Below are positions 26,383-63,516 of a stretch of DNA of 64,000 bases, one piece after another. The position numbers were made by a program, and so were the translations under genes. Source of the DNA: Candidatus Omnitrophota bacterium. GTDB taxonomy: Bacteria > Omnitrophota > Gorgyraeia > Zapsychrales > Fredricksoniimonadaceae. Below the pieces are notes generated by a model. The model saw only the letters and a program-made list of their open reading frames with translations, was not told where the DNA came from and made no database searches. The DNA lies in the NCBI GenBank assembly GCA_903944345.1, contig CAJARJ010000002.1, positions 65,969-129,968 on the forward strand, written 5' to 3'. How positions within the stretch are numbered: the stretch's first letter is position 1; each line of letters begins with the position of its first letter.

Positions 26383-26396
26383 AACAATCTCCCGGT

Positions 26397-27641: not shown

Positions 27642-27650
27642 ACCATGTAC

Positions 27651-29330: not shown

Positions 29331-29365
29331 TATGATAGCCCCGGAATATTCTCGTCCAGAAAGAA

Positions 29366-30964
29366 TTAGTACGGTTTATAACCTTTGAGCAGAAAATATG
29401 TATCGGGATCAACCGGGGCATCCCCACTGATAATATGCGGCGTAAGAAAAATAACAATCTCTTCCTTGGTGGTGCTGCGAGTGTCACTGCGAAAGGCCCT
29501 GCCCAGAAAAGGAATATCTCCGAGAACCGGAACGCGGGAATTACCAATAGCCGCATCATCTTTGATCAGTCCGCCAATCACAATGGTCACCCCGTCTTTT
29601 ACCCTGACAGTGGTCTCAACCTCGGAAGTATTGACAATCGGAATCTGGTTCTTCTGCTCACCGGTCGTAATAAACTCGGTTGCGGTAGACACCTCGGGGC
29701 GGATCTTCATGGTGATATAGCCGTCATCATGAATCATTGGCGTGACGTTGAGCTTGACGCCAACATCGATAAAATTTACTGTTTCCGCGGTCGTGGACGG
29801 CCCCGTGGCGCTAACCGTCTGGGAAGTTGTCACATACGGCTGGGTCTTGCCGATATGTATCCGGGCCTCCTGGTTATTGATCACGGCAATGCTCGGTTTG
29901 GAAAGGGTCTTGGTCGTTCCCATCGTGGCCAACGCCTGGATAACAGCCTGGTAGCCATCGCGGCTAAGGGTGCCGATGGTGGCAATCTTGTTAACCGACC
30001 CCAGCTCAAAATCACCGGTCAACTCGACATGATACCGCTCCTGCTGCGGAATCCAGGCTGACCAGTCGACACCCGAATTCTGTCCCTCGCTTAAAGACAG
30101 CTGCACAATCCGGGCCTCAATCAGGGCTTCTTTCTGATGCTTGTCCAGCGACTCGACAACCCGGCGGACACGCTCGACATTCCGGACCGTATCGGTCACC
30201 ACCAGAGCATTGGAAGCCTGGTCAATATCAATTTTTCCGGACTCTTTGGTCATTACGGACACCAGGCTCCGGGCAGCATCTTCAGCCTTGAGATAGCTGA
30301 GTTTAAAGACTTCCGTCCGGGTTTCTTTCTGCGGTTTGTCCAGTGCCGCAATCATCCTGCGCACACGTTCCATATTGACAACCGTATCGGTCACAATCAA
30401 CTCCCCGGAAGCATCGTCGAGCTGGATCGTACCGGTATCTTTGGTCAGGATAGAACCCAGTGCCTTGGCCGCTGTGTCGGCCCCGATATAGTCAAGATTA
30501 AAAAGCTCGGTTTGCATATCAATGCCAAACGCCGCTCCATGCCTTCTTTCGTACTCCTCTGCGCTCATAACCTCGATAATTCCGGAATGCTCCTCATAGG
30601 CAAAACCATTAGACTTAAGGATCAGAGCCAGCACTGCGCGAGCATCCACGTCCTTCAGAAACATGGTCACCCGGCCCTGAACTCCTTTCCCGGCAACAAT
30701 ATTCAGACCTGTCCGCGAAGAGAGCAGGTTAAGCACATCATTGATATCCATATCCTTTAACTGCAGAACATCCAGCCGACCGGAAGGATTCACGGATGGC
30801 AGTTTACGGGTCTGCCCGACAAGGTCTTGCCCCACGACAGCGTCCGGCAAAGGAAAAAATTCATCGGCAACGCTGCTCCCCTCTTCCTGGGCATACACGC
30901 CAACTGTTGCCATCGCTGCACAACAAAGAAAAGCCAGCAAGACTGGCCGCAGGCTAGTGATCAT
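29366..30964 (-). CDS. gspD: type II secretion secretin GspD
   Basis: Signal peptide, repeated N-domains (two near-identical IQLDDASGELIVTDTV / IDIDQASNALVVTDTV modules) and a C-terminal secretin domain (VIGGLIKD...VPVLGDIPFLGRAF). Confidence 0.85.
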   Translation of the reverse strand: MITSLRPVLLAFLCCAAMATVGVYAQEEGSSVADEFFPLPDAVVGQDLVGQTRKLPSVNPSGRLDVLQLKDMDINDVLNLLSSRTGLNIVAGKGVQGRVTMFLKDVDARAVLALILKSNGFAYEEHSGIIEVMSAEEYERRHGAAFGIDMQTELFNLDYIGADTAAKALGSILTKDTGTIQLDDASGELIVTDTVVNMERVRRMIAALDKPQKETRTEVFKLSYLKAEDAARSLVSVMTKESGKIDIDQASNALVVTDTVRNVERVRRVVESLDKHQKEALIEARIVQLSLSEGQNSGVDWSAWIPQQERYHVELTGDFELGSVNKIATIGTLSRDGYQAVIQALATMGTTKTLSKPSIAVINNQEARIHIGKTQPYVTTSQTVSATGPSTTAETVNFIDVGVKLNVTPMIHDDGYITMKIRPEVSTATEFITTGEQKNQIPIVNTSEVETTVRVKDGVTIVIGGLIKDDAAIGNSRVPVLGDIPFLGRAFRSDTRSTTKEEIVIFLTPHIISGDAPVDPDTYFLLKGYKPY

Positions 30965-45082: not shown

Positions 45083-48000
45083 TCAGCGTGAAGGAACAAT
45101 CCCCAGCAAGCCGGCCAACCCCGTCATGGGAGTAATCCTGATAATCGTCCCCCTCAATCCGCGAGACTGCTCAACGAGAGTTTCCAACGACTGGCCACCC
45201 AAAACATCCGCGCTCCATTCTCCGCTGCGCTCGACATCCAAAGCGCGGGCATCGATACCACCAGTTCGCTCAACCGCTTGGGAAGCGTCCAGTGCCGCGA
45301 CCAAATCACCCAAAAAAGCTTTCAGGTTTTCACTGCGCTGATAGAGTGTCACAGGAGCTTTCTGCCAGGCCTCAAGCCAGGCATCAAGGGCGCTTCTTGA
45401 CTCGCTGAATTGATCAGCAGGGAAAAAGGCCCTCAAATAATCCGGAAAATACGGCATCATGCCGTCGAGTGAATTAAAACCATGTCTCCTTTGAACATCT
45501 ACAATCGTCTTATAGAAACCTTCCAGCCCGGGCCGGGATTCTTCGGAGAACATAAACCCGTTAAACTGGAAAAGTCCAACGCCATCGGGATTCTCTGTCC
45601 GGACTTTCGTCCGTACCGTCTGGTCAGGCAAGCCCACGGCAATAGCTTGGACGGCCAATATTTTTTCGCGCGCCTCATCTTTCTTCTTTTTCAGGACGTC
45701 CTGGGCCCGGTACAACATCGCCGCCGCTGTAATGGCTCCCGTCTGGGTCTTGTTCAACAACCGGCCCAAAGCCGCCCCGCGAAAAAATCGATCCCGCTCC
45801 AGATCCCAGACGTTCTTCATCTCTCTGAATTTCTGTTCCCAGGAAGACGGATCCTGATAGCTCAACATCAACAGGTTCCCGACCGAATTAGCCTCCCCCG
45901 GGTTCCATGGTTTCATATTATCCGTTGTGCCGCCATCCCGATGATCAAATGCAATCTGGATCGCCATGTTGGGCTGAGGGTTTTCCTCCAGCACTTCATG
46001 CGCCCCCAATGTTCTCTTGTTAAGAATAATATATCCGTTCACCATTCCCAGAAGCGCAATTTTCTGCTCCTCGGTAAAATGCTGTACAAAGAAAAACTGT
46101 CCGGGATAACGGTTTTCGCCTCTGGCCTTGGCCTCTCTGCGTTCACGATTAATCTTGAACTCTATATCCCGGTATTTGCGAGCCAGCTCACGACTGGGAT
46201 CTGTATCCTGAAGATTTCCCTGGATCACAACTGAATACCCCATATCCACCAGCATCGGAATCAGCCAATAGGGGTCGAATGCATTCTTTTCATCCACCAG
46301 CCGGCGGGCGTTCCCCAAAATAGGGTTATCCGTGTTCACATCCACATACAAAGCCGCACGAACCTGATCCGTGGCTGTAAAGCCGGCATTCAGAGTCTCA
46401 TTGGCCCATTTAAGAATGACCGCAAGCTCCATATTGTTGAGTGCTTCAACAGATCTTCCGTACTGCTCTCTGGCCCTGGCCTCAAGCAGTTCTCCGTTAG
46501 CTGTTCTGACCTTCATCTGATTGTAGCCTTGCGCGGTTCTTTTCTTGAGACGCGCAACATCTGTGGGAGACAAATAATCGATATCCGCAGTTGCTGCGAT
46601 CTCTCCTTCCTGTTGAATGCGACTAAACGTCTGTTCAAGAAACGCCGCTATCTGTTTAGGATTGTCTCCATTGGTCGCCGCCGTCAAAGGAAGCCCATAA
46701 AGAGTACTCATGTGCGCAGCATGACTCCGGCTGACACCCAGTCCGGCATCGGCCAGCCTCAGCCCTCCCCAGGTAAGATTCCCAAACAGGCTGGAACCCG
46801 CTGCAGGCCCTCCCTGCTCCGGATCCCACCATCTGTCAATGTAAGCCGCTCCGGAAAACTGCGCCGGAAGGTGCATCAAATTTTCTGCCAGATGTCTGGC
46901 CTGTTCCAAAGGCAGTGTCTGGGCGTTAAGAATGGTATGCGTCGAGTCCAGGATCACCACATTGTCCCGGGACAAGCCCGGCAACTCATGCCCTCTGATG
47001 GCCTGCACAAGAGGTGCCGCCTGTCCATCCTGGGTATGTACTATAATTAAAGGGTAACTTCCGTCAGCCTTCCGGTCCCTGATCTGCTGACGAGACAAAA
47101 ACGCCTCGGAGGCCAACGCAAAAAACGCGACCGACTCTTCCATAGTGACGGGATTATTCGGCGCTTCAGCAGATTTATACATATATAATCTGTTGGAGAA
47201 CTTGTTCCATTCGTCACGGATATAATATCCTGTGACCCCGGCCCGGTTTTCACCTTCCTCAACAATGACCGGAACCCGCTCGGATCCCACTTCAATATCA
47301 AATCTGTCAACTTCATGCAAATTCTTCACTCCGAGATTCCTTCTTCCCGAACCGTCATCATCATAATATAGCGGTTCTCCCCCGGGAACTCCGGTATCAA
47401 ATCGCATGGCGTACTTAAGCTGAATCGACCGAACCCTGGCTCCCAGCCGTGTCAGAAACATGGAATGCGTCTCATTAACAGGGCCCAATCCTCCTTGTTT
47501 ATAATCCATCTCAACTGTAGCGAAATAATACGTTATATCGTTCAGAAGAGGCATGCTTTCTTTGACAAACGCATCTGTATACCGACCCGTCATCAACAGC
47601 ATCATATTCATGAGTCTCGTCCTGTCTTTTGCAGGAACCGACTCGATCGCATCCATCAACCCGTTGAGCTGCTCTTGCGGCAATAGCGCCACAGCCTTGG
47701 TGACAGCCCACATCCCCTGAACAGGATTCCCCCGGATAACCTCAACATCGTACTGAAGAGAATACCGTGTCATCAGTTTTTTGAACTCTTCCTTGAATCT
47801 GCGTACTGAGAGCCTTGCCAAGCCCTGAAACTCGACTAAAATTTTCTCAAACCGTCCGATTGCGTTCCACTGCTCTGTTGTTTCCGGAACAAACTGCGCC
47901 CTGACAGCTTCGTCAATAATCTGGGAACCGTCCACCGCTTCAAGGCTGGCCGCGATCCTTTGTAAAGGACGTTCTGCAAAAGCCTCGACTTCCTGTGCCT

Positions 48001-49078
48001 GGGCCGCGTCCTGGCGAATATCCCCAACCGCAAACCCGCCGGAGAAATACTTCCTCGGGAAATCCTCACCGGTGACAGGATCGGTTTCTTCCTTTATATA
48101 GTTAAAAACACCTGTCCGGTAAGCCGCCATATACTGCTCGTAGATCAGTTCCTTGTTCTTCGGATCACTTAAATCGATCCCGGCAACCTTGCTCTTTCCG
48201 GAATAAACTTTGTTAAGAACGCTATCCTTGAGCGCCTTCTGGTACCACTGCGCCAGAACCAGCGCATAAACAACCTGACGCAGGCGGGCAAAATTGGCCC
48301 CTTCATTCACTTCCTGTTCAATGGCCGGAACGATCAGCTCGCGTAAAATATTCTTGGTCAGTTCTTCTTCGGGAGTACCTGTTGCAACGGCATTCTCCTG
48401 CTGGGCCTGATGGTCCGCATCCAGCATGACCTTCATTTCCGCTCCGGTTATAAAAACAGTATTACCTTTCTCGAACACCCGGGCCCGCTGAGGCACAATC
48501 CAGACTTTATTGAACGCATCAACCGGAAGATCCGTCACACCAAATTTTTCCCAGGCCTGTGCATATATTTTTTGCCAGAAATCATGCCCGAGATTCTCTT
48601 CAGGATAAATCAGAGAAGCCGTCAGCTGTTTCAGAACATAATCCTGTGCCAACAAATCCCGGCCCAACTCTGTCCGAATCAATGCTTCGGGAACAATCCG
48701 GTCTGATTCGACCGGCGAAAGGTTGACCCACAGATCCTGTTGCGGAACAGTAAGCGCAGCAAGAAAGTAGTTAATCATACGCTGGGAGTCATCACGCAAC
48801 TCCGCTTCACTTACAAGCAAAGAACCGGGGTCAACAATAAAATCAAGATCAAGCGGACGGGAGGGATCAATTGTAATTCCGCGCAACAAAACAGGTTCGA
48901 TCGCTGCTGAAAAACGCACCATCTGTCCCGGTGCAGGCAGCACCTCTCCGGTTACCAGAGCCTGGGCGTAACCAAGAGCAGGCTCACAACAAAGAATAAC
49001 CGCTAATAGAAATGCCAGAAAACGCCGCATGAAATGTCCTCCCGGTTTTGGATGGTTACGAAGAACGTGATTAAACAA
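45083..49078 (-). CDS. giant (1331 aa) secreted multidomain protein, paralog-family member 3; possible GT-B glycosyltransferase/glucan-phosphorylase-like module
   Basis: Signal peptide ...GYAQA and the conserved N-domain. Internal DYKQGGLGPVNETHSMFL and GGTTDNMKPWNPGEANSVGNL weakly recall GT-B/GT35 motifs. C-terminal GGIDARALDV...RGLRGTIIRITPMTG tail. Sits 9 nt upstream of member 2. Confidence 0.85.
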   Translation of the reverse strand: MFNHVLRNHPKPGGHFMRRFLAFLLAVILCCEPALGYAQALVTGEVLPAPGQMVRFSAAIEPVLLRGITIDPSRPLDLDFIVDPGSLLVSEAELRDDSQRMINYFLAALTVPQQDLWVNLSPVESDRIVPEALIRTELGRDLLAQDYVLKQLTASLIYPEENLGHDFWQKIYAQAWEKFGVTDLPVDAFNKVWIVPQRARVFEKGNTVFITGAEMKVMLDADHQAQQENAVATGTPEEELTKNILRELIVPAIEQEVNEGANFARLRQVVYALVLAQWYQKALKDSVLNKVYSGKSKVAGIDLSDPKNKELIYEQYMAAYRTGVFNYIKEETDPVTGEDFPRKYFSGGFAVGDIRQDAAQAQEVEAFAERPLQRIAASLEAVDGSQIIDEAVRAQFVPETTEQWNAIGRFEKILVEFQGLARLSVRRFKEEFKKLMTRYSLQYDVEVIRGNPVQGMWAVTKAVALLPQEQLNGLMDAIESVPAKDRTRLMNMMLLMTGRYTDAFVKESMPLLNDITYYFATVEMDYKQGGLGPVNETHSMFLTRLGARVRSIQLKYAMRFDTGVPGGEPLYYDDDGSGRRNLGVKNLHEVDRFDIEVGSERVPVIVEEGENRAGVTGYYIRDEWNKFSNRLYMYKSAEAPNNPVTMEESVAFFALASEAFLSRQQIRDRKADGSYPLIIVHTQDGQAAPLVQAIRGHELPGLSRDNVVILDSTHTILNAQTLPLEQARHLAENLMHLPAQFSGAAYIDRWWDPEQGGPAAGSSLFGNLTWGGLRLADAGLGVSRSHAAHMSTLYGLPLTAATNGDNPKQIAAFLEQTFSRIQQEGEIAATADIDYLSPTDVARLKKRTAQGYNQMKVRTANGELLEARAREQYGRSVEALNNMELAVILKWANETLNAGFTATDQVRAALYVDVNTDNPILGNARRLVDEKNAFDPYWLIPMLVDMGYSVVIQGNLQDTDPSRELARKYRDIEFKINRERREAKARGENRYPGQFFFVQHFTEEQKIALLGMVNGYIILNKRTLGAHEVLEENPQPNMAIQIAFDHRDGGTTDNMKPWNPGEANSVGNLLMLSYQDPSSWEQKFREMKNVWDLERDRFFRGAALGRLLNKTQTGAITAAAMLYRAQDVLKKKKDEAREKILAVQAIAVGLPDQTVRTKVRTENPDGVGLFQFNGFMFSEESRPGLEGFYKTIVDVQRRHGFNSLDGMMPYFPDYLRAFFPADQFSESRSALDAWLEAWQKAPVTLYQRSENLKAFLGDLVAALDASQAVERTGGIDARALDVERSGEWSADVLGGQSLETLVEQSRGLRGTIIRITPMTGLAGLLGIVPSR

Positions 49079-52095: not shown

Positions 52096-52359
52096 GTGCC
52101 TCAACGTAAATGTTCTGTCAAATCGCTCAAACAAAGCCAGAAGCGTCGTCTGCATAATCTTGATATCAAGACCGCGCTCAGAAAAACCGTCAAAGAATAC
52201 GTAGAAACCACCAAGACCGATCCCGCCAAAGCGGTTGGATTGCTTTCTTTGGCCTACAAAAAGATTGATAAAGCTGCCAAGCGTAATGTTCTGCACAAGA
52301 ACACGGCTTCTCGCCGTAAAGCTTCCCTTGCTAAGCTTTTAAAAGCGACCAAAGCTTGA
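52096..52359 (+). CDS. rpsT: 30S ribosomal protein S20
   Basis: 87 aa basic protein with S20 family features (KSLKQSQKRRLHN...KKIDKAAK). GTG start preceded by AAGGAG. Confidence 0.9.
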   Translation: MPQRKCSVKSLKQSQKRRLHNLDIKTALRKTVKEYVETTKTDPAKAVGLLSLAYKKIDKAAKRNVLHKNTASRRKASLAKLLKATKA

Positions 52360-52996
52360 CCACTGCAACTTCCAGCGCCTGTTCGCGTTGAACAAACCGG
52401 CTGTGCTTTAAAGCTTCGTCGGCCTCCTGCAAAATCAGGAGGCCTTTTTTATATTTGTCAGCGGAAACCCGGCCCTGAACACGATTACCCCAGTACCAGA
52501 CTACTCCACCCAAAAGCTGCTCTGCGGAATCGCCCCGGTCAAAAAGTTCCTTGAGAATCTTGAGGGCCGATACCGCACTTCTCCCCAGCAATTCATCCAT
52601 CATCTGAAAAATGGTTAAAAGCGGCTTCTCTGCGGCACTGATTACCTGCAGTTTTTTACGCAGAGACTTGCGGGGTTCTGCGCGCCCGTCCCAGGAAACG
52701 GCATCAAGCACCAAAACAGGATTCTCCGGCGTATCCTCAAGAAAGCGCATGACAAGCTCAAGATTTTCCTTGGAAAGTTTCTCGGCATTGCGTACCACCA
52801 CCAGCTTGCGCACCGACATGGCTGGAACCGAAGCCAGGGCAACCTTGAAGTCTTCCGCACTCAGCCCGAAAGCATCCAGCGTTTCCACGTCAAAACGGGC
52901 AGCGGTTTCATTCTCGAATAAGTTAGCCTTGAGCTGGGCAATCTTTTCCTGACGCCGCTCCAGTTCCAGTCCGATAAAAAGATAATGATTCGCCAT
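52331..52996 (-). CDS. holA: DNA polymerase III delta subunit-like (short, 221 aa)
   Basis: Delta-subunit-like N-terminal segment (MANHYLFIGLE...). Placed just downstream of lptE as in the conserved lptE-holA arrangement. About 120 aa shorter than E. coli HolA. Confidence 0.55.
   Translation of the reverse strand: MANHYLFIGLELERRQEKIAQLKANLFENETAARFDVETLDAFGLSAEDFKVALASVPAMSVRKLVVVRNAEKLSKENLELVMRFLEDTPENPVLVLDAVSWDGRAEPRKSLRKKLQVISAAEKPLLTIFQMMDELLGRSAVSALKILKELFDRGDSAEQLLGGVVWYWGNRVQGRVSADKYKKGLLILQEADEALKHSRFVQREQALEVAVVKLWSLLKA
52421..52452 (+). terminator. candidate rho-independent terminator of rpsT, embedded in the 3' coding region of the convergent holA-like gene
   Basis: 8-bp perfect stem ggcctcct / aggaggcc, 8-nt loop, then TTTTTT. 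Confidence 0.4.
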
Positions 52997-53098: not shown

Positions 53099-53635
53099 TT
53101 ACCAGTCTTCAATCGTTCGCGCCACCACACGGCGGGCCACATCAACCAGAGCATCGGCAATGGCACTTTCCTCGGACTTGGCCAAAGCACCGGAAACATA
53201 ATACGTGGTGTCACCCGAAAAAGCCGGCTCCTGCCAGACCACCTTTTCATTGACCGGATCCCAGAGAGTCAATGCCAGAGTCACGGTCAAACGGTACTCC
53301 TTCACATCTTCATCATCGGTCAAGCGCAAATCTCCCCGTTCGAAGGAAAGCACCTGACCCTGCAAAACAAGATCAGCCCCCGCCTGGTCCGCGATTTTGA
53401 GATTGCCGTCAAAAATAAAGCGATCCACCACCGCATTGCGAATTTTGGTTTCCAGACCGGGAATATAAATCTTGCGCTGATCCTGGTTAAGGTAATCGAT
53501 ATTGTTGGCAAACGGCTGAACAAAGATAGTCTGATAACGGCTGGAAATAACCGAACCCGTTGTATAGGCACAACCGGGCAAAGAAAGAAGAAAACACCCA
53601 AGAAGCCCGGTCAACAGCGCGGGAAACGTTCTCAT
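53099..53635 (-). CDS. lptE: LPS-assembly lipoprotein LptE-like
   Basis: Lipobox LSLPGC, ~180 aa, positioned immediately upstream of holA. Confidence 0.6.
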   Translation of the reverse strand: MRTFPALLTGLLGCFLLSLPGCAYTTGSVISSRYQTIFVQPFANNIDYLNQDQRKIYIPGLETKIRNAVVDRFIFDGNLKIADQAGADLVLQGQVLSFERGDLRLTDDEDVKEYRLTVTLALTLWDPVNEKVVWQEPAFSGDTTYYVSGALAKSEESAIADALVDVARRVVARTIEDW

Positions 53636-54591: not shown

Positions 54592-54724
54592 AGGAATGGC
54601 CGGTAAAGGTTGTGTGCTGATATATTCGTGGGTCAATCTAACACAGCCAGCCTGGTTTGTCAACGCAGTGCGCGGGCAAAAAAACACCCCTCTTCGGTAA
54701 CGAAAAAGAAGGTAACGGCAGGAA

Positions 54725-56869
54725 TTATATTGATATCCCGGCAACCGGACGAATGGACAAAATGGTGGGCACAAAGCCGTCCACCTGCAGGCTTTCCAGA
54801 TCCTGTTGCGCCACCGGCAAAGGAACCCCCTTGCCGTCCCGGCGAATCTGCATGTCCCAGTTGGCAGAATTCAGATCAATACCACCAACGGCATCCTTGT
54901 TCTGCAAAGACGCAGCCTCGCTAACAGCCTGCCCCGCATCAATATTGGAGCGAGCCTGAACTGCAGTCAAAACCGCTCTGATATCCGAAGCGTCAAACCG
55001 AAACTCAGATAACTGCAAGCCGCGCCCGAACTGATCATCCGTAAGAACTCTATCTATATCCAAACCCGGGTCAAAATAAGCAACCCGATCATTGCTCTGG
55101 TCTGGCAACAATAGACCATGTCCAAGCAAGGCATCAAATATGTCCGGAGCCCTGTCCTTGAAGACCGCAACAAAATCCGCGGGGGTCACACGCACTTCAA
55201 AATCCGGTCTCTGCCTTTCAGCCCAGACGCGGGCCAAGGCTCTTAAAACATAGTTGACAACATTAACCTCATTGGCCGGATTCACCCGCGAACTCTGCTG
55301 CATCAAGATTGTCAGCAGACGCCTGATCGATGGCAGTTGCTTGACTTCATTCCAAAGACGCTCCAGCTGATTGATATCCTTAACATCGTCTGGATTCATC
55401 CTCACTTGCTTTGCCGAAAAGTCAAATGCCGGCAGCAACCGTCGCCACTCTTTGGTCATGATGGAAACGGACACATTAAAAGCCTCTATGTCTATAGGAC
55501 TTCTCTCGCCATCGGCTTGCGCGCTGCCTTCTTGCAATATCTGCTCTATCTCGGGAACATCTACCTCGTCTCGCCCCAGAATATCCGAAGCATCCAACCC
55601 AAGACTTTCCAACAATAGCGGCAAAACATACGACACCGGAGCCCCGTTCTGAGCGGCATCGGCGATATCGCCCATTCTCTTTGGTTCCAGAAGTGCTGCA
55701 GCAGAATCAAAAGCCGCGTCTTCCAGTTGCCGCGCGGCATCACGGGCCGCCAACGGCAAAGCGGCATAATCAGAAACAATTTGTAATTGGGCTGGATCCT
55801 GTCCGCGCGCCAACCCGCCGGAAAAATATTTACGGGGGATAAGTTCCTGCGAATACTGATCCACATCCTCCCGGATCATGTTAAAAACCCCCTTGCGAAA
55901 AGCCTCCATATATTGTTCCCAAATCATGCGATTGGCCGAACATTCTGCGCCCTTGCCGGAACAGTCAGACTGGTCAATCCCTGCCACCCGGGACTGATCG
56001 GCATAGACCCGCCCCAGAATAGATTCCTTGAGCGCCCGCTTGTACCAGGTGGCCAGAACCATAGCTGTACAAATCTGGCGCAGAACAGTAAAACTTTTTC
56101 CCTGGTTAACCTCGCGCTCTATTTCCGGAACAATAACATCCCGTAAAACTTCGGACGACAAACGGACAAACTCCTCGTCATCACCCACCGGACTGTTGAG
56201 CACGGGCGCGGCCTGTCCAGCCTGGCTCTTGTAGGCCAGATAATCTCTTTCGGTCATAACCCGCAGGCGCTGGGTCAGAAGATAGGCTGTTGTTCCTTTT
56301 TCGTAGACAACAGCCGTGTCCGGAATAATCCAGACCTTGTTAAAACTTTCCAGCGGCACATCCGCAGAACCAAATTTCTCATGCGCCCGGCGATAGAACT
56401 CACTCCAGTACTTTTTCCCCAGCTCGGTATCGGGATGCGTCAAGGAGGCCGCCAACTGTTTAAGCAGATAGTCCTGAGCCAGAAGGTCTCGCCCCATAGC
56501 TGTCAAACCAAACTGATCATCAACCAGCCGATCCCCCTCATAGGGCGAAAGGTTAACCCACTGATCGGTATCAGGAATAGTCAACGCCGTCAGGAAATAT
56601 TTGACCAACCGGGTATATTCTTCCTGTTTCTGATCCGGCGTCAGGGCTGCGTCTCCCTTACGAATAAGAAAATCAAATTTCAGGGCATTCATCGGATCAA
56701 TGGTTACGCCCTGCAAATAGGCCGGAGTGAAAGCCTCCGATGGGGGCAGCAGTGTTCCGGGTTCAGGCATAAGCTGCATAACAGATTGTGCCTGCGCCAG
56801 ACCGGTCGGCGGACGCACACAGCTCCAGCCAAATATAACCAATAAAAATATCGCAGTGACTCTTTTCAT
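54725..56869 (-). CDS. secreted protein (714 aa), minimal member 4 of the giant-protein paralog family (N-domain plus C-terminal tail, short middle)
   Basis: Signal peptide ...GLAQAQS and the conserved N-domain (WVNLSPYEGDR, GRDLLAQDYLLKQL, NKVWIIP, PRKYFSGG). C-terminal GGIDLNSANW...DGFVPTILSIRPVAG tail. Confidence 0.85.
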   Translation of the reverse strand: MKRVTAIFLLVIFGWSCVRPPTGLAQAQSVMQLMPEPGTLLPPSEAFTPAYLQGVTIDPMNALKFDFLIRKGDAALTPDQKQEEYTRLVKYFLTALTIPDTDQWVNLSPYEGDRLVDDQFGLTAMGRDLLAQDYLLKQLAASLTHPDTELGKKYWSEFYRRAHEKFGSADVPLESFNKVWIIPDTAVVYEKGTTAYLLTQRLRVMTERDYLAYKSQAGQAAPVLNSPVGDDEEFVRLSSEVLRDVIVPEIEREVNQGKSFTVLRQICTAMVLATWYKRALKESILGRVYADQSRVAGIDQSDCSGKGAECSANRMIWEQYMEAFRKGVFNMIREDVDQYSQELIPRKYFSGGLARGQDPAQLQIVSDYAALPLAARDAARQLEDAAFDSAAALLEPKRMGDIADAAQNGAPVSYVLPLLLESLGLDASDILGRDEVDVPEIEQILQEGSAQADGERSPIDIEAFNVSVSIMTKEWRRLLPAFDFSAKQVRMNPDDVKDINQLERLWNEVKQLPSIRRLLTILMQQSSRVNPANEVNVVNYVLRALARVWAERQRPDFEVRVTPADFVAVFKDRAPDIFDALLGHGLLLPDQSNDRVAYFDPGLDIDRVLTDDQFGRGLQLSEFRFDASDIRAVLTAVQARSNIDAGQAVSEAASLQNKDAVGGIDLNSANWDMQIRRDGKGVPLPVAQQDLESLQVDGFVPTILSIRPVAGISI

Positions 56870-56958: not shown

Positions 56959-57717
56959 CTAATTTGTTGACACGTATCTGTTTCTGACAAAACAAAGCCC
57001 CGCCACAAAAAGAATGTAATACCCGCACACAATGCCGGTGGAAACCTGCGGCAGCGCCCAGACGCCACCCGGGACCAGACTGAAAAACCAGGCAGCGGCT
57101 ACCAGAAGATTGAGCGCAATATGCAGACTCCCCGCCACGAGCTCTCCCAGCGGAGAAAAAAGACTTCCTGTCATAACCACTCCCACTCCCAGCGCAGTAA
57201 CCAGCGTGGCCAAAGGCACCACCGGCAAATTGGCCAGCAGTCCAACAGGGGTCAAGTTCCCGAAAACATACGCAGTAATCCCGGCCGATCCGGCCCAGGC
57301 CGCCAGGGAAACAATCAGGCCTTCTCTGAGCCAGCGCAGTAAAGATGAACCGCCTTCTGTCCCTACCCACGGCAGAAGAAACATTGGAGAAACAAGAACA
57401 ATAGAAAGGACACAAATAAAAGAGAGCTGAAATCCAACATCAAAAAGCTGACGCGGATCTGCCAATGCCATAGCCAGCAATGCAAACCCGACCGTATTGA
57501 GCATGTCCTGATCGCGCTCGATCACAAAAGCCAGCAAAAAAACCGTACTCATCCACGCAGCGCGTACCACCGGCGGTTCTCCTCCAACCATAAATGCGTA
57601 AAACCAGGCCAGCAGCAAAGACAAAACAAAACTTGCCCGGCGGCCAACCCTGAGCGCACCCAGAAGCATGACAAATATCGAAACCAGCAGCGTAATATTG
57701 AGCCCACTGATGGCCAC
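56959..57717 (-). CDS. ComEC/Rec2 competence-domain membrane protein; probably the 3' remnant of a comEC gene split by the adjacent integrated element
   Basis: Polytopic Competence-domain-like sequence. The upstream end coincides with the GC drop and the recombinase 3' end, and the recombinase frame reads ~60 aa into this gene. Confidence 0.5.
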   Translation of the reverse strand: MAISGLNITLLVSIFVMLLGALRVGRRASFVLSLLLAWFYAFMVGGEPPVVRAAWMSTVFLLAFVIERDQDMLNTVGFALLAMALADPRQLFDVGFQLSFICVLSIVLVSPMFLLPWVGTEGGSSLLRWLREGLIVSLAAWAGSAGITAYVFGNLTPVGLLANLPVVPLATLVTALGVGVVMTGSLFSPLGELVAGSLHIALNLLVAAAWFFSLVPGGVWALPQVSTGIVCGYYILFVAGLCFVRNRYVSTN

Positions 57718-59312
57718 AATATGGGTCTTGGCAGGTCAATGCAGGGGAAAGAATCCTTGCTTTGGATGGATGCAACTGCTGGAAGGAAACAGTCAATGTC
57801 GATTTTACCGTCGATATTGACCTTTATTGAAGTATTCAGAAGCTGAAGCACAGCTTTTTTCTGCTGATATGTAAACTGCTTCATTCCCTCTTTGATTTTC
57901 TTGACATAATCAATCGCATTCTTTATCTCTTCTCTCTTATCTTCCTTATTCAATGACAATGTCAAGTCCTGCTTTGTTCTCTCAAGCGTCTCCCGATTCT
58001 TTCTTAATGAATCCATCTGCTCTCTTAACTGCTCAATTGTAATAATAGACTGCCTGTACGCTTCAAGAATCCTATGCTCTTCTTTATCCAAGCTGTCGAG
58101 AAGCATCGAAATCCTTGAAAGCTCTTTTTCAGCAGCTTCCCTGCCAAGTTTCTCGACATCCGGTTTGTTCCTAACAGCATGCTCAATCAAATCCGGGTTC
58201 TGAAATATCTTTACAACTTCGTTCCAGACTGAATCTTCAAGCTTTCTTGCCTGAACATATCTGAGCTTGCACTTCACAACCTTATCAAACCTGTTTTTTA
58301 CAAAGTGCGTGCACCGATAATACAGCATAAAATACGGGCCATACTTCTTGCCTTTCTTTACCGTCACCTGCTTATCTGCTGTCCCCGCAACAGTATTTCC
58401 GCAATCCCCGCATTTCACCATGCCTTGAAGAAGATAATCGTATTTTGCGTTTCGCTCTGAATAATTCCTCCTGTTTAAAAGAAGTTCCTGTGCGCGATAA
58501 AACTCTTCGTCAGAAACAATCCTCGGAACATCAACCAGAATCCAGTCCTTTGAGGGCTTAAGCCCTCCTGTCTTTGAGTCATGCTTATTCGCGTGCCATT
58601 TCCCAATATAGATTGAATCACGGAGAATGTCATGAACCGCATCCTCTCTCATCTCATGACCTTCTTTTGTCCTATAGCCAAGCTCTCTTAATTTTCTTGT
58701 GACCTTAAGGATTGAGAAATCAGGCTGGTTATAAAACTCAAAAGCTAACCTAACAACCTCTGCTTCTTTCTCATCAACAGTAATTTTCTTTGTCGCCTTA
58801 TCATATGAATACCCAAATCTTGCATTAGCAGAACCTGAATAATACCCTTCCTTCGCTCTCCTTAATTTCCCAAGCTTTGACCGTTCCATAAAAGTATTCC
58901 GCTCAAGTTCAGCAATCGAACCGAACAGCGATAGAACGAAATTTCCAAGATAAGTCGAGGTATCAAATGGCTCAGTGATTGAACGGATGCTGACGCTTGA
59001 TTTCTTTAGCTCATCGACTGTGTTTAGAAGATGCTTGTTGTTTCTGAAGAATCGGTCAACTCTGTAGACAAGGACAAGCTGAAACCTTCCTTCTCTTGAA
59101 TCTTCCATCAGTCTTTGAAACTGTGGTCTTTCAAAGCTCGTGCCTGAATAGCCGTCATCAATGTATTCGCCAAATACATCATACTTATTGTCTGCCGCAT
59201 GTTTTCTTAATAGCTCCATCTGGGAGGCAAGCGAGAAATTCGAAGTCTGCTCCTCTGTAGAGACACGGGCGTATAAAGCAACTTTTGTGATTTCCTTGTT
59301 CTCAGTCATCAC
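57549..59312 (-). CDS. large serine recombinase (integrase); annotated 3' end runs into host comEC sequence
   Basis: N-terminal resolvase catalytic domain (VALYARVSTEEQ...S..QMELL), recombinase domain, zinc ribbon (CGDCGN...C) and C-terminal coiled coil. The last ~60 codons are GC-rich host sequence. Confidence 0.85.
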   Translation of the reverse strand: MMTENKEITKVALYARVSTEEQTSNFSLASQMELLRKHAADNKYDVFGEYIDDGYSGTSFERPQFQRLMEDSREGRFQLVLVYRVDRFFRNNKHLLNTVDELKKSSVSIRSITEPFDTSTYLGNFVLSLFGSIAELERNTFMERSKLGKLRRAKEGYYSGSANARFGYSYDKATKKITVDEKEAEVVRLAFEFYNQPDFSILKVTRKLRELGYRTKEGHEMREDAVHDILRDSIYIGKWHANKHDSKTGGLKPSKDWILVDVPRIVSDEEFYRAQELLLNRRNYSERNAKYDYLLQGMVKCGDCGNTVAGTADKQVTVKKGKKYGPYFMLYYRCTHFVKNRFDKVVKCKLRYVQARKLEDSVWNEVVKIFQNPDLIEHAVRNKPDVEKLGREAAEKELSRISMLLDSLDKEEHRILEAYRQSIITIEQLREQMDSLRKNRETLERTKQDLTLSLNKEDKREEIKNAIDYVKKIKEGMKQFTYQQKKAVLQLLNTSIKVNIDGKIDIDCFLPAVASIQSKDSFPCIDLPRPILWPSVGSILRCWFRYLSCFWVRSGLAAGQVLFCLCCWPGFTHLWLEENRRWYALRG

Positions 59313-59524
59313 TGCCTGCCTGTTAGTTTTTTAAGCTTCTTTAAGTCTTCTTCTGTCCAATACCGATAATTATTCATCGGGTCACGCTTTGCTTTAGGCA
59401 CTTTTCCGGCATTCTCCCAGTTGTAATACGTCCACCGGGTTATGCAAAGCTCGCGCTCAATGTCTTCAATATAGTATCGTTCTTCCATACCGTATACTTT
59501 ACTATAGTTTGTAATAGTAGTCAA
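59309..59524 (-). CDS. small MerR/excisionase-family HTH protein (candidate recombination directionality factor)
   Basis: 71 aa; a central helix-turn-helix is plausible (ELCITRWTYYNWENAGKVPKAKRD); overlaps the recombinase start by 4 nt. Confidence 0.45.
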   Translation of the reverse strand: MTTITNYSKVYGMEERYYIEDIERELCITRWTYYNWENAGKVPKAKRDPMNNYRYWTEEDLKKLKKLTGRQ

Positions 59525-59532
59525 TCCATAGA

Positions 59533-59862
59533 TTACCCCCTGCCTTCATTCTTCTCTGATAACTCAATTGCATACAGAACAACCTTCACTATATCCTTTA
59601 GTAATGCCGGATTGTCCGACGTATGAACTTTCAAATTAGGTCTTAGAATCTGTTTTCTAGTCGGAAGAATAGCGATGACCTCCTTTAATATTTCTTCCCT
59701 GTCCTTGTCAGAAAAATATTTTGAGTCAGCCCATTCATCAAACAGCGACAGCAAGTCTCTATCCGGGAATTTACTTTCGTAATCCCGGAACTTTTCTGCC
59801 TGTTCTCTGATAAAGGCTTTGGATGCCATATTGGCAGTCTCCATAATCAAAACTTCGTCCAC
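59533..59862 (-). CDS. hypothetical protein (element cargo)
   Basis: 109-aa ORF in the AT-rich element, tightly packed with its neighbours; no recognisable motif. Confidence 0.4.
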   Translation of the reverse strand: MDEVLIMETANMASKAFIREQAEKFRDYESKFPDRDLLSLFDEWADSKYFSDKDREEILKEVIAILPTRKQILRPNLKVHTSDNPALLKDIVKVVLYAIELSEKNEGRG

Positions 59863-60488
59863 AGGTTCTTGTATTTTCTAAGCGAAAGAATGTAATTCTT
59901 GATGACGTTCTTCCCATTCCTTATTAGCTCGACTCTTGAAATGTATTCAAAGGAATGAGGAGCATATTTCCTTAACGCTTCGGTAAAATCAGCGAAAACT
60001 TCCTCACACTGTTCATAGTTGCGCTCGTTCCAACACTCGTTCATCACGTTATCAACGTAGTTGTTCAGCATTTCCCTTTTCCATGCTTCAGAGATTGCAG
60101 AAAGAACACTGCCAAGCCCGCCCTCAGTGCCGGATGTTGCACGAAACAAAGCCTCGTCAAAATCCAAAATCTGCTTTAAAAGCCGTTTTGCTTCTCCAAG
60201 GGCAAAATTATTGCCGGGGTCAAAACCATGAAACATTCTCATGTAGTAAAACCGCATGAAGTCAGCAAGAACGCTCTCAAACTCTTCGCTGGAATAGACG
60301 ACTGAACTTTTTAGCTGATACGCGCCCCGGACAGTGTCATGTGGCACTTCGATTTCTCTTACCAATCGTGCGGGGTGAAGCCTCTCAAGCATTCGTGCAA
60401 ATCTTCCGGGCATAAATTCCTCCTTGTTAAATCTGGTCAAAAATTTTCTTTTGCGGTTGAACTTTCTCAGCCTTCTTTTCGACGCCAT
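59847..60488 (-). CDS. hypothetical protein with highly basic N-terminus (element cargo)
   Basis: 213 aa; starts KRRLRKFNRKRKFLTRF then an acidic/aromatic globular region; no known motif. Confidence 0.4.
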   Translation of the reverse strand: MASKRRLRKFNRKRKFLTRFNKEEFMPGRFARMLERLHPARLVREIEVPHDTVRGAYQLKSSVVYSSEEFESVLADFMRFYYMRMFHGFDPGNNFALGEAKRLLKQILDFDEALFRATSGTEGGLGSVLSAISEAWKREMLNNYVDNVMNECWNERNYEQCEEVFADFTEALRKYAPHSFEYISRVELIRNGKNVIKNYILSLRKYKNLWTKF

Positions 60489-62733
60489 GTTTCATGTAAT
60501 ACTTTTCAAAGCACATTGCCTTAATTTGCTCAGACAAGTCTTCTCTGTCAGAGCCAGGCCTTGGAGTGTTGATTTTCACAACCTCGTTATCACGGCAGAC
60601 AAATGCTGTGAACGGTTTTAGTTTCGTAAACTCTTCCGGCGGGATTCTTGTCGATTTTGAGATTTCCTCCGCATCTTCCCGGCGGAGCTTGAAATAAATC
60701 TGAGTGCCTGCAATCGCAAGAACATCCCTTGTCTTGCCCTCGACCTGACTCAAATATTGATGCGCAAAAATTACAGAAAGTTGATACTTAGATAATGCCG
60801 ATACCTGAATATCTAAGTCACCCGGCCCCATATAAAATTCGTCTTTTATCAGGGTGAACGGTTTTCTCTCGTGGAATGGAATGTTCGCTCGCTGAATTAT
60901 GAGATTGTTTACAAACGAATCGAACAAGCCCGCGAGAAGCGATGCTCTTTGTTTTCCGATTGAGCCGCAGGAAAGATTGACGAGACAAAGCTTGCCATTC
61001 TCCATTATGTCCTTAAGAGAAATCTTGTTTTTATCGTCTTCAAGTGTAAAGAATCTTAGACTGCCCTCATCGAGCAAGAGATGACTAAGCCTGCTTAAAA
61101 CAGGAGCCATCGAGTCATAATTTGAATACTGGATTTCATCGAGAAAATTAATGACAATCGGATGGGTTATTTTTGATTTAATTTTTTCACGGATTACTTT
61201 TCCCTTTGCGCTTTTTGAAAGAAGAAGTCTTAAATCAGCGAAATTGATTTCCGGAACGCTCGCATAAATATAAAACACGCACGAAAAGCCGAACGCCATC
61301 TTTGGCCCAAACCAAGCCTGACTATTCTTTGTGCTGGTGATTGTTTCCATGCTTGCGCTCATGTCATCACTGAACTTTCCAGCTCCGACAAGAGAAGCAT
61401 TAAGATTTTCTCTAATGGTCAACAACGGGGTCAGACCTTTTATCCCAAAATCAATGAAAACAACCTTACTAATTAAATGAACAGGGATGCGCGACATAAT
61501 GCCCGAATTCAAATCACCTTGAAAATCAACGACCATGACTGACTCGCCATTCTCAACTTTCTTAATAGCCAAATCAGCCAGTAAGACTGACTTTCCTGCA
61601 CGGGGCGCACCCATGATATGGATGTGCGGATTGAATCGCTGGACTGGTGAAAAGACACCAACCCCCTGCCCGCAAGCCCATGTCCCAAGTAGCACGTCAG
61701 ACTTTTCTGCTGTCTTCTTTGGATAATCTCCGGCAGGAACTCTTAAAAAAATATCATCAAACTCCTTATCTCCCATGATACCGACAGGCATATGAAGAAT
61801 GCCAGCAAGCTCATGCGAATTGACAAGAAAGCCAGAATGAAATGACACGCGGTCATTTGCCATCTGCAATATTGCTTCCGGGGTGAAATCTTTTCTAATC
61901 AGGAAAGCTTTATCGTCGTAAACGTAATTCGCTATGAAGGCATTAATAGATGCTTCGCATGTTATGTCAGGGAGTAGAAGGCGAAAACTGCACGAGTAAT
62001 ACGACCTGAATTCCGGGCTTTTGTATTCAAGCTTTTTGTTTACCGACCCTGCCTGTTCGCTGGGACTTGTCACGCGGTCAATCCCGTGAATTGCCTTCCA
62101 TTCAGTATCAACGCATTCTGAAACTATGGCATGTACTGCTCCTGAAAGTCCCATGATTAGAACCTGGTAGATTCCCTTCTTATCCTCAGGAATTTGAAGG
62201 AACATCTGAGCAAGAAGATTAAGAGGACTTACGATAAAACCGCGATATGAGCTCATGTTTTTATAGAACGGGGCTGAAATATCAGGGACAAAGTCATAGA
62301 CGACAAGACTCCCTTCATTCTTTTCCGGTTCAACAATCTCCGTATGAACATGTGAAAAGAAAGTCTTTACTGCTGCATCAACAATCCGGATATCCGACTC
62401 CTCACCATAAAAACTGATAAGGATTTCTTTGCAGTTGCCCCTAATTTCAAAGACAATTTGCGAAGCTGTATTGTGTAGACTTTCAGCAAATTGTTCCGAG
62501 AGCAGGAAGAAATTCTCAACATCTGCTTTCGCAGGATAGACATTCAGCGTCTTTGGATTCTTGTATGAGAATTCAGTTACAGGAGAAAGAAGCCTCGGCG
62601 TCAGATTAACTGGCTTATCTGAAACCTCGTGCGTGCAGGCATTCATGTTATTGTTCTGAAGCTCACACAAAGACATCTTCTTCAGCGATTCTTCGACGAA
62701 GTATTTAAGAAAATGCGAACAAGGAACTGACAT
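60427..62733 (-). CDS. P-loop NTPase of the FtsK/TraD(VirD4)/HerA-DUF87 type with a ~370-aa unique N-terminal region
   Basis: Walker A IMGAPRAGKS near residue 385 and Walker B-like TLIKDEFY near residue 640. No N-terminal TM segments. Confidence 0.65.
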   Translation of the reverse strand: MSVPCSHFLKYFVEESLKKMSLCELQNNNMNACTHEVSDKPVNLTPRLLSPVTEFSYKNPKTLNVYPAKADVENFFLLSEQFAESLHNTASQIVFEIRGNCKEILISFYGEESDIRIVDAAVKTFFSHVHTEIVEPEKNEGSLVVYDFVPDISAPFYKNMSSYRGFIVSPLNLLAQMFLQIPEDKKGIYQVLIMGLSGAVHAIVSECVDTEWKAIHGIDRVTSPSEQAGSVNKKLEYKSPEFRSYYSCSFRLLLPDITCEASINAFIANYVYDDKAFLIRKDFTPEAILQMANDRVSFHSGFLVNSHELAGILHMPVGIMGDKEFDDIFLRVPAGDYPKKTAEKSDVLLGTWACGQGVGVFSPVQRFNPHIHIMGAPRAGKSVLLADLAIKKVENGESVMVVDFQGDLNSGIMSRIPVHLISKVVFIDFGIKGLTPLLTIRENLNASLVGAGKFSDDMSASMETITSTKNSQAWFGPKMAFGFSCVFYIYASVPEINFADLRLLLSKSAKGKVIREKIKSKITHPIVINFLDEIQYSNYDSMAPVLSRLSHLLLDEGSLRFFTLEDDKNKISLKDIMENGKLCLVNLSCGSIGKQRASLLAGLFDSFVNNLIIQRANIPFHERKPFTLIKDEFYMGPGDLDIQVSALSKYQLSVIFAHQYLSQVEGKTRDVLAIAGTQIYFKLRREDAEEISKSTRIPPEEFTKLKPFTAFVCRDNEVVKINTPRPGSDREDLSEQIKAMCFEKYYMKHGVEKKAEKVQPQKKIFDQI

Positions 62734-62742
62734 AACCTTCTC

Positions 62743-63516
62743 CTATATGATTGCTTTCCCCGTTTCACCCGCACCCGGCACAGACCAGATGTTTGCCTTT
62801 ATTCCCGATTGAATCAGTTGCGGCATGGTGGTTATCCAGATGAACCCATCCCTGTCTACCGACGATATAATTCTGGATATGGATTTAAGCCTAGCTGTGT
62901 TGTTTGCAATGAAGAGAACTCTAAAACGGGTAAAGTTACAGCTGAACCATTCTTCATATTCTTTCGTCTCGTTCTCCTGAAACATCGAGACGTATTTGAG
63001 AAATTTTTTCTCAATATCCTCGTTATAGGAAGGGGCGGGCGAAGATATAATTTCCGTTCCTGAACAAATTTCCAGAAGGAATAATGCATGCTTGTTGTTC
63101 CGCTTTAGAACAAAAACGCCGTCCGGAATTATCTTGAGTTGATATCTCTCTCTCAAAATATGTTCCGGCATCACCTCGCATTCAACATCACCGCCTTTAA
63201 ACTGGCTATAGATATCGACGAGAGTCTTAATGTTTTCCTGCTGGTGCCCAAGCTTTAAGGATATGCGGGGCTTTGAGTACCGGACGCCAAAAGACTTGGC
63301 GCAATCTTCAGTGAGGTAAAATAGATGCGCCGACTTCCCCACGTTGACACTCGGCAACATGACAAAAGACAATAGACCGCCGCTGACAAGCTTTCTCATA
63401 CGACGCTGAACTGCCTTGATGTGCATACCAAACAACTCAGATATATGCCCGGAAGAAAGGCAATGAAACCTCGCTATGAAACTTAATATTTGTTTGTCCC
63501 GTTCCTGTAGCCTCAT
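62743..63516 (-). CDS. replication-relaxation (Replic_Relax) family wHTH protein
   Basis: N-terminal LQERDKQILSFIARFHCLSSGHISELFG...AVQRRMRKLVSGGLL matches the Replic_Relax wHTH pattern; 257 aa. Confidence 0.6.
   Translation of the reverse strand: MRLQERDKQILSFIARFHCLSSGHISELFGMHIKAVQRRMRKLVSGGLLSFVMLPSVNVGKSAHLFYLTEDCAKSFGVRYSKPRISLKLGHQQENIKTLVDIYSQFKGGDVECEVMPEHILRERYQLKIIPDGVFVLKRNNKHALFLLEICSGTEIISSPAPSYNEDIEKKFLKYVSMFQENETKEYEEWFSCNFTRFRVLFIANNTARLKSISRIISSVDRDGFIWITTMPQLIQSGIKANIWSVPGAGETGKAII

Follow-up and report, generated by a model that had tools for sequence, protein, structure and literature searches.

A short-insert member of a large, modular family of exported proteins specific to Omnitrophota

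The locus examined here raises the question of what a protein does that is conserved at both of its ends and variable in between. The stretch, hereafter the window, comprises 64,000 nucleotides (nt) of a Candidatus Omnitrophota contig (CAJARJ010000002.1), and the gene in question is an open reading frame (ORF) encoding 714 amino acids (aa), which shares the window with three larger paralogs of 1331, 1426 and 2017 aa. A preceding model-made reading of the letters alone, referred to below as the sequence-only reading, had described four such proteins with an N-domain and a C-tail in common. We read the 714-aa gene as a short-insert member of an Omnitrophota-specific modular family of exported proteins, in which the N-domain and the C-tail would form one split module and a common handle for a step after Sec export; taken as a whole, this reading has in our judgement about an even chance of being right. 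The family itself is very large, uncatalogued, Omnitrophota-specific, modular and, as judged from its signal peptides, exported.

Layout and extent of the family

The identical 714-aa protein was found on several metagenome contigs, the longest of 630 kb, where the gene caller also gave 714 aa. The protein consists of a signal peptide, an N-domain, a linker and a C-tail (Table 1). The sequence-only reading had this layout right and the length of the linker wrong, which is about 300–310 aa and not ~250 aa. The signal peptide comprises MKR, a 13-residue hydrophobic core or h-region (AIFLLVIFGWSCV) and then PPTGLA/QA/Q, with cleavage predicted after A25 or A27. The N-domain (aa ~34–354; ~320 aa) is an alpha/beta domain with three beta-hairpins and about 7 helices in the AlphaFold2 (AF2) model, and it ends in an invariant R.YFSGG. 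Its invariant polar residues are N106, S108, E111, R114, D133, K137, Q138, S142, K178, E190, D209, E253, N255, R264, Q265, K277, R346 and K347. The C-tail has the sequence GGIDLNSANWDMQIRRDGKGVPLPVAQQDLESLQVDGFVPTILSIRPVAGISI and follows the pattern GGIDLN...QIRRDGKGVPLP...VDGFVPTILSIRP.

An exhaustive search was run with phmmer against 1.84 billion representatives, in which family representatives are clusters at 50% identity. It returned 8,521 family representatives at E<=1e-3 and 6,038 at E<=1e-30. Nearly all matches listed contained the N-domain and the tail as two matching stretches, and the 714-aa protein shared 45–59% identity with hundreds of homologs. The informative source names were all Candidatus Omnitrophota or Omnitrophica, apart from a few metagenome-assembled genomes labelled otherwise ('uncultured Planctomycetales', Elusimicrobia, Ca. 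Elulimicrobium and one Desulfobulbaceae); essentially all of the family is restricted to the phylum Omnitrophota. At least 585 family loci were confirmed in GTDB species representatives. Genomes carry several paralogs, with 2–4 loci each in 21 assemblies among the best 80 loci, and tandem copies are common, as exemplified by the 1331- and 1426-aa pair in the window.

Family proteins are 580–2300 aa long. They were defined by rules, namely an N-domain profile ending in R.YFSGG, a C-tail of the form GGID...R.G...G[FL].P[VI]I..I.P within about 50–75 aa of the C-terminus and a Sec-type signal, all of which were found in the 714-aa protein. Both motifs were present in 187 of 189 members, with an insert of 159–1805 aa (median 621) between them. 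The tail was located 53–75 residues from the C-terminus in 118 of the 120 best homologs, with the pattern 'GGID[LFM]n.anL.[LM]QIKRDG.GVPLP..QQ..... I.G[LF]vP.I..I.P'. The insert of the 714-aa protein is 310 aa long and therefore short, not minimal as had been proposed, because inserts reach down to 159 aa. Direct joining of N-domain to tail, which the sequence-only reading had also put forward, was seen in none of the 189 members examined. In about 950 kb of related loci, there was no complete protein with only a tail or only an N-domain; the 13 tail-only pieces encountered there were all cut by locus ends or frameshifts.

A hidden Markov model (HMM) of the N-domain, built from homologs and run on the window ORFs, matched exactly four of them (E-values of 8e-154 for the 714-aa, 1.5e-119 for the 1331-aa, 1.9e-95 for the 1426-aa and 1.7e-94 for the 2017-aa protein). 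In pairwise comparison, the three larger paralogs are 30–36% identical to the 714-aa protein. The canonical tail HMM scored 97.5 bits on the 714-aa protein and a marginal 11.8 bits on the 2017-aa paralog, and it gave no significant match on the 1331- and 1426-aa paralogs. When the 1331-aa paralog was used as the query, its tail proved to fit type B of its own subfamily ('GGIDARNIxVxRxG..VSDxALE...GLxGVIVxITPI'), while the 1426-aa tail resembles type C ('GGIDIxNIDVxKxG.AKIxFxD...GFxGFTPVxIxxTPV'). Tail variants go with N-domain subfamilies. Judged from these alignments, the tails of all four paralogs are one module with graded, subfamily-specific divergence; the similarity that the earlier reading had named beforehand as its test survives alignment in the form of diverged subfamily versions.

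No model for the N-domain or the tail was identified in Pfam (2025) and NCBIfam (2026) with the four paralogs, or in Pfam with 54 members. PDB sequence searches with single sequences and profiles returned nothing credible for the N-domain, the tail or the linker; matches to huntingtin, moesin and TolA were rejected as composition artefacts. A Foldseek comparison of the AF2 model with PDB and BFVD gave nothing below E 0.1, and its top rows, toxins of the MakA/NheA type, were rejected (probability <=0.06, TM-score below 0.1). A description of the family was not found in the Omnitrophota literature searched.

The N-domain and C-tail as a split module

Following the definition of the family, the ratio of nonsynonymous to synonymous substitution rates (dN/dS) was calculated against an ortholog of 84% identity (locus L084). 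The N-domain (95% identity) gave a value of 0.054 and the tail (96.5%) one of 0.055, compared to 0.32 for the linker (71%). This demonstrates strong purifying selection on the N-domain and tail and weak constraint on the insert. The sequence-only reading had regarded the N-domain and tail as a constrained core around an interchangeable middle, and this part of it is borne out by the dN/dS values, by the pairing of the two motifs in 187 of 189 members and by the lack of complete single-module proteins in the loci sampled.

The linker of the 714-aa protein is acidic (49 D+E vs 31 K+R) and was modelled as helical at low confidence, with a predicted local distance difference test score (pLDDT) below 50. 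No recognisable domain was detected in it (aa 355–657) with Pfam, NCBIfam or PDB, and hence none of the enzymatic kind which the earlier reading had named as evidence against itself. Local jackhmmer, run over some 310 family proteins and roughly 1.6 Mb of loci, found the protein's own 84% ortholog as its only relative; a separate database search, for which just the linker served as the query, was uninformative, as it missed even the identical protein P0001 present there. The linker evolves about six times faster than its flanks, with some constraint remaining, and we read it as a lineage-specific variable region, neither a mere spacer nor a known enzyme.

Coupling between the two conserved parts was analysed by mean-field direct coupling analysis (DCA) of 339 sequences, with an effective number (Meff) of 240 and about 65,000 pairs. 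As an internal control, the predicted hairpin ladders of the N-domain were recovered (187-195, 187-199, 185-199; also 55-195 and 197-343). The second-strongest coupling overall linked T97 of the N-domain with F699 of the tail, and the third was 97-188. The triad 97/188/699 reads T/V/F or A/I/L, and the combination of A with F was never seen. On a neighbour-joining tree, position 97 changes 17 times and position 699 changes 15 times, with 3 changes on the same branch vs 0.38 expected. When tails were randomly re-paired, the maximum score between N-domain and tail was 1.17–1.44, compared to the 2.47 observed, and 1–2 pairs exceeded 1.125, compared to 20 in the real data; such shuffling removes phylogeny along with contact, which makes the control necessary, not sufficient.

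The full-length AF2 model presented a confident N-domain (pLDDT 75–93) and a tail with three beta-strands (663–665, 672–677 and 699–708; pLDDT up to 88). With the same 53 homologs, the tail modelled alone formed no strands (predicted template modelling score 0.30). These observations lend moderate support to a tail that adds strands to the N-domain sheet, near strand 179–191 and helix 78–97. Selection, covariation, the tree test, the shuffle control, the context-dependent tail strands and the tail variants that go with N-domain subfamilies therefore favour a split module with the tail docked on the N-domain. The tail would fold back and extend the N-domain sheet, and the cargo would be inserted as a domain into a loop of the split module, a step to which the same moderate support applies.

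The covariation and AF2 evidence is compatible with docking either within one chain or between chains. In the latter case, donor-strand exchange would bring the tail strands into the N-domain of an adjacent subunit, giving fibres or sheets that display the inserts. Covariation is blind to the difference between intra- and inter-chain contacts, the tail needs a partner for strand formation, and one compatible module is common to the many paralogs of a genome, all of which suit such exchange. However, the AF2 monomer already yields tail strands in cis, no chaperone, usher or pilin-processing genes recur among the neighbours, and the idea is purely speculative; we hold it to be very unlikely.

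A further alternative treats the tail as an autonomous C-terminal sorting signal, which would be read by a dedicated Omnitrophota machine while the N-domain has a separate role, in the manner of the C-terminal domains (CTDs) of type IX secretion system (T9SS) cargo or of type I secretion system (T1SS) signals. No stretch is more conserved than the tail, which has a fixed distance from the C-terminus in the 118 of 120 homologs mentioned above, every member carries a Sec signal just as T9SS cargo does, and a secretin-based system is located in the window. An autonomous signal does not, however, agree with a tail that none of the loci sampled showed apart from the N-domain, that covaries with the N-domain and forms its AF2 strands only in that context, and that matches no curated sorting-domain model. 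Furthermore, several diverged tail types occur side by side in one genome and follow the N-domain subfamily, which would be unexpected for one shared receptor. We regard this alternative as unlikely and retain the split module.

Export, inserts and the role of the module

The complete N-termini of 287 members were judged by rules for the n-, h- and c-regions of signal peptides and not by a trained predictor. A strongly hydrophobic core was present in 97% of them, with an h-region of 11–17 aa (median 15), the n-region was net-positive in 96%, and the c-region was typically PP..[AG]xA-Q. By these rules, the N-termini fit cleavable Sec signal peptides and not membrane anchors; the anchor reading is disfavoured because h-regions of 11–17 aa are too short. 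A lipoprotein reading was rejected as a general feature, given that a lipobox-like Cys occurs in one subgroup only and that the GWSC of the 714-aa protein breaks the lipobox rule.

The inserts were characterised from precomputed Pfam annotations. The majority of them had no domain match. Those from sugar and central metabolism included the GT5 glycogen/starch synthase (about 30 proteins), glycogen phosphorylase, 4-alpha-glucanotransferase with a debranching domain, phosphoglucomutase (PGM), UDP-glucose pyrophosphorylase (UDPGP), epimerases, PPDK/PEP synthase, transketolase, NDK, NUDIX, ELFV dehydrogenase, ROK kinase and phosphoribosyltransferase. Signalling and chaperone types comprised CheY receivers, HATPase, DnaJ, low-molecular-weight phosphatase, methyltransferases and GT2, and repeat or binding domains were also present (HEAT, ankyrin, WD40, TPR, fn3 and LysM). 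A 1551-aa member at another locus (L053, 5893..10548) carries a PP-binding (phosphopantetheine-attachment, acyl-carrier-like) domain at aa 1406–1473, just before the tail.

Within the window, the 1331-aa insert scored 19.5 bits with PF08323 (GT5), below the cutoff of 22.7, and contains a K-Q-G-G-L motif (KxGGL); orthologs of this paralog carry precomputed PF08323. Its subfamily profile matched starch synthases among PDB sequences at the motif region only (E 0.002, weak). The 1426-aa insert gave a weak CofD match and the 2017-aa insert a GlmS-like stretch of 29 residues. PDB sequence searches with the large window paralogs yielded no credible match beyond the weak starch-synthase motif, and their inserts are very diverged.

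Some inserts start with a sequence resembling a signal peptide or a lipobox (P0040 aa 370–394, P0029 aa 549–572, P0088 aa 421–442 and the 2017-aa window paralog aa ~398–428), with examples such as …FLFVTGC, …LSLTGC, …LCSSGC and …VAMSHAAAFA. Given that these inserts begin like a second signal peptide or lipobox, their sequences suggest that whole exported genes may have been captured between the N-domain and the tail. A crude hydropathy scan, whose false positives include a SAM-binding motif, found exactly one hydrophobic, transmembrane-like segment in 52 of 187 inserts and no such segment in 122.

The nature of the inserts bears on where the proteins reside. If the N-terminal hydrophobic segment were not a cleaved export signal, the proteins would lie on the cytoplasmic side, with their enzyme inserts tethered to the membrane or to each other. 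This would suit the cargo, which is of a cytoplasmic kind and depends on nucleotide cofactors, and a preprint on giant Omnitrophota proteins likewise doubts extracellular predictions for glycolytic domains (West-Roberts et al., 2023). Such a placement is opposed by the h-regions of 11–17 aa that, together with positive n-regions and c-regions of the AxA type, mark about 96% of the 287 members, and by the 122 inserts without a further hydrophobic segment to return the chain to the cytoplasm. We consider it scarcely probable.

Alternatively, the N-domain, with or without the tail, could be the active part, binding the envelope or a glycan or acting as an enzyme, with the middles as accessory modules that tune it. 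Its many invariant polar residues and very low dN/dS would be expected of such a part, and most inserts lack a recognisable domain. It nevertheless has no similarity to a known catalytic or binding family or fold, and a single activity tuned by glycogen synthase, transketolase, CheY, DnaJ and WD40 alike is hard to picture. This explanation appears to us rather improbable.

In the reading that we prefer, each member is built from a Sec signal peptide, an alpha/beta N-domain of ~320 aa, a hypervariable insert (159 to >1800 aa) and a C-tail of ~55 aa. The insert would supply the activity specific to the member. After Sec export, the constant module might conceivably give all members the same handle for some later step. 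Candidates for this step are crossing of the outer membrane or retention there, display on the surface, or assembly onto a partner that the members have in common. Our best guess is that the module acts as a handle for export, anchoring and retention, or assembly.

Several points weigh against this reading. The support for docking is indirect, as it comes from strand calls, pLDDT and covariation, and the depth of the DCA is low (Meff 240), so that shared phylogeny can inflate couplings. The predicted signal peptides rest on rules. Cytoplasm-type enzymes needing ATP or NDP-sugars would be odd passengers of a Sec-exported protein. Single spans in 52 of 187 inserts, if real, would place the N-domain and tail on opposite sides of a membrane; docking in cis would then be contradicted in those 52 members. 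No specific conserved partner gene emerged from about 540 neighbouring ORFs clustered from 80 loci, where the clusters were generic only (response regulators, ABC ATPases, GT2 and histidine kinases), and nothing specifically ties the family to the type II secretion system (T2SS) genes of the window.

Genomic context, related systems and meaning

The features of the window are listed in Table 1. On the minus strand, the gene order is comEC (split by a serine-recombinase element), the 714-aa gene, bamD, lptE and holA; rpsT on the opposite strand, murJ, uvrC, the 1331-aa paralog, the 1426-aa paralog, ychF, a release-factor gene and secA follow after holA. Nearly all long ORFs of the window lie on the minus strand, including dnaK, dnaJ, clpB, hflX, miaA, secA, the release factor, ychF, uvrC and murJ, with rpsT as an exception.

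Table 1. Positions of the family members, their parts and other features in the window.
Feature	Position	Strand	Remarks
714-aa family member, whole ORF including stop	54725..56869	(-)	ATG ORF; identical protein called on metagenome contigs
Sec-type signal peptide (predicted), aa 1-27	56789..56869	(-)	read from sequence and family-wide N-terminus statistics
Conserved N-domain, aa 34-354	55808..56770	(-)	HMM E 8e-154; AF2 pLDDT 75-93; dN/dS 0.054
Linker/insert, aa 355-657, lineage-specific	54899..55807	(-)	acidic, helical, pLDDT below 50; dN/dS 0.32
Conserved C-tail, aa 658-714	54728..54898	(-)	tail HMM 97.5 bits; dN/dS 0.055
1331-aa paralog (1315 aa from likely start MRRFLAF)	45083..49078	(-)	N-domain about 48032..48940; type B tail about 45086..45262; GT5/alpha-glucan-enzyme-like insert
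1426-aa paralog, in tandem with the 1331-aa paralog	40793..45073	(-)	N-domain about 44039..44929; type C-like tail about 40796..40966; weak CofD-like insert
2017-aa paralog	3115..9168	(-)	N-domain about 8146..9030; A-like tail about 3118..3300; insert with several hydrophobic helices and short GlmS-like stretch
Terminator-like hairpin 54710-54687, then promoter-like site 54663-54635	54635..54710	(-)	consensus scans only; in 133-nt gap before bamD
bamD, 319 aa	53632..54591	(-)	downstream neighbour, outside family
lptE	53099..53635	(-)	downstream neighbour, outside family
secA	35225..38212		window
gspD secretin	29366..30964		T2SS/type IV pilus-like cluster (22099..30964)
gspE ATPase	27651..29330		T2SS cluster
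gspF	26397..27641		T2SS cluster
Four small pilin-sized ORFs	24458..26625		T2SS cluster
PilN-like protein	22099..23544		T2SS cluster

The sequence-only reading had placed the 714-aa gene downstream of the lptE/bamD-like genes; on the coding strand it is actually upstream of them. Its adjacency to bamD is kept in the 84% ortholog. In one other genome, the 1551-aa PP-binding member of locus L053 is located between miaA-hflX and bamD-lptE-holA, and no member directly upstream of bamD was found among metagenome bamD loci with at least 1 kb upstream (80 loci sampled). Membership in a bamD-lptE operon, or a functional link with these genes, was rejected as a general feature of the family, the adjacency being lineage-specific and terminator- and promoter-like sites lying between the genes. 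The 714-aa gene and bamD/lptE are probably not an operon. Because the adjacency is lineage-specific and these sites intervene, the context of outer-membrane biogenesis carries little weight. Likewise, the notion that the short form is ancestral is without evidence, as the other genome with a member at the bamD-lptE-holA position has the 1551-aa protein there.

The interruption of comEC was observed next to the 714-aa gene. Only a C-terminal piece of 203–252 aa remains in the window (fragments 56959..57717; region 56959..63000), while an intact ComEC of 512 aa lies directly upstream of the family gene at the ortholog locus L084. Before the piece there is a large serine recombinase (57549..59312; Resolvase, Recombinase and Zn_ribbon_recom), and the same region holds several small ORFs and a 768-aa ORF (ORFs 59533..62733), with a Replic_Relax-like gene beyond. 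From its gene content, this looks like a mobile element or prophage integrated in comEC. On the other side, the holA homologs, which encode DNA polymerase III delta, are short (214–221 aa, with weak Pfam scores; window 52331..52996, L053 12175..12819); the delta subunit usually has ~340 aa. The gsp genes of the window show that a route of secretion across the outer membrane is, as predicted from sequence, present. A conserved T2SS locus near giant genes is described in the Omnitrophota giant-gene papers.

Several known classes of secreted protein were considered for the family and rejected. T9SS cargo was dismissed after no match to TIGR04183, TIGR04131 or their Pfam equivalents was found on the four paralogs or, with Pfam, on 54 members. 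RTX substrates of the T1SS were dismissed on the lack of a HemolysinCabind match and the presence of a Sec-type signal. For autotransporters of the type V secretion system (T5SS), the conserved module at the C-terminus spans no more than about 55 aa (vs a barrel of at least about 250 aa) and no autotransporter Pfam match was obtained. For dockerin-bearing, cellulosome-type enzymes (PF00404), there was no Pfam match and the tail is not internally duplicated.

Resemblances to these and other systems are nevertheless instructive. T9SS cargo of Bacteroidota combines a Sec signal, a passenger and a conserved C-terminal domain, a beta-sandwich of 70–100 aa. The family shares with it the N-terminal Sec signal, highly diverse passengers and a C-terminal module common to many paralogs per genome; unlike it, the tail is about 55 aa long, lacks a match to Por_Secre_tail or a type B CTD and always accompanies a covarying N-domain of 320 aa. 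Genes for a T9SS were not encountered. The PE/PPE proteins of mycobacteria and polymorphic toxins have one conserved end and a C-terminal variable part, and they use T7SS, T5SS or T6SS (type VII, V or VI) without a Sec signal. They too are large, lineage-specific paralog families, in which a conserved terminal module, thought to traffic the protein, is joined to variable and sometimes enzymatic regions. The family differs in being conserved at both ends with the variable part internal, and no immunity-type partner was noticed.

In domain-insertion ('split domain') proteins, a host domain is likewise interrupted by a guest in a loop and its two segments still fold together. Here, by contrast, one host module would take thousands of unrelated guests across a phylum, for which we know of no precedent. 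A parallel of another kind is found in Chlamydia, where GlgA and other glycogen enzymes are reportedly exported by the type III secretion system (T3SS), as Gehre and colleagues are said to have described in 2016. Both cases concern host-dependent groups related to the PVC (Planctomycetes-Verrucomicrobia-Chlamydiae) bacteria and glycogen enzymes with export signals. The chlamydial enzymes carry N-terminal T3SS signals as opposed to the Sec signal and N-domain/tail bracket of this family, for which delivery to a host is without evidence.

Omnitrophota are widespread, ultra-small and uncultured bacteria, presumed to be predators of other microbes or dependent on them. Their giant proteins ('Archaeovorins') have 10,000 to >100,000 aa and many transmembrane helices, and some of their domains are predicted to be extracellular, a prediction about which the authors are cautious (West-Roberts et al., 2023; 10.1101/2023.11.21.568195). 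They share with the present family the phylum, an unusual domain repertoire (GT5 glycogen-synthase-like, HEAT_2, PGM, HATPase, PPDK_N, NUDIX and HAD), the placement of such domains in proteins with signal peptides or transmembrane helices, and T2SS genes nearby. In contrast, the proteins studied here have 580–2300 aa and are defined by the N-domain/tail bracket, of which the passages on the giant proteins found by term search make no mention.

The kinship of the family is one of kind, with modular exported families that have conserved trafficking ends, and the chance that something more unusual is involved is real. With clusters numbering in the thousands and several paralogs to a genome, the family suggests that this lineage has a general way of its own to export, anchor or assemble proteins beyond the cytoplasm. 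It offers a handle of small proteins on the puzzle posed by the giant ones, namely cytoplasm-type enzyme domains in apparently exported polypeptides, and the 714-aa member, as the simplest paralog in this genome, is a practical construct for structural and localisation work. It is possible, if somewhat doubtful, that the module is a split-domain carrier found throughout the phylum, which has accepted unrelated inserts by the thousand, among them complete enzymes of central metabolism and signalling, and brings them out of the cytoplasm via Sec. Part of the sugar, glycogen and signalling biochemistry of these bacteria would then be run at the cell surface, in the periplasm or within a host cell, through a trafficking or display mechanism without a described counterpart. 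A portable carrier tolerating any insert, if true, may also interest protein engineers.

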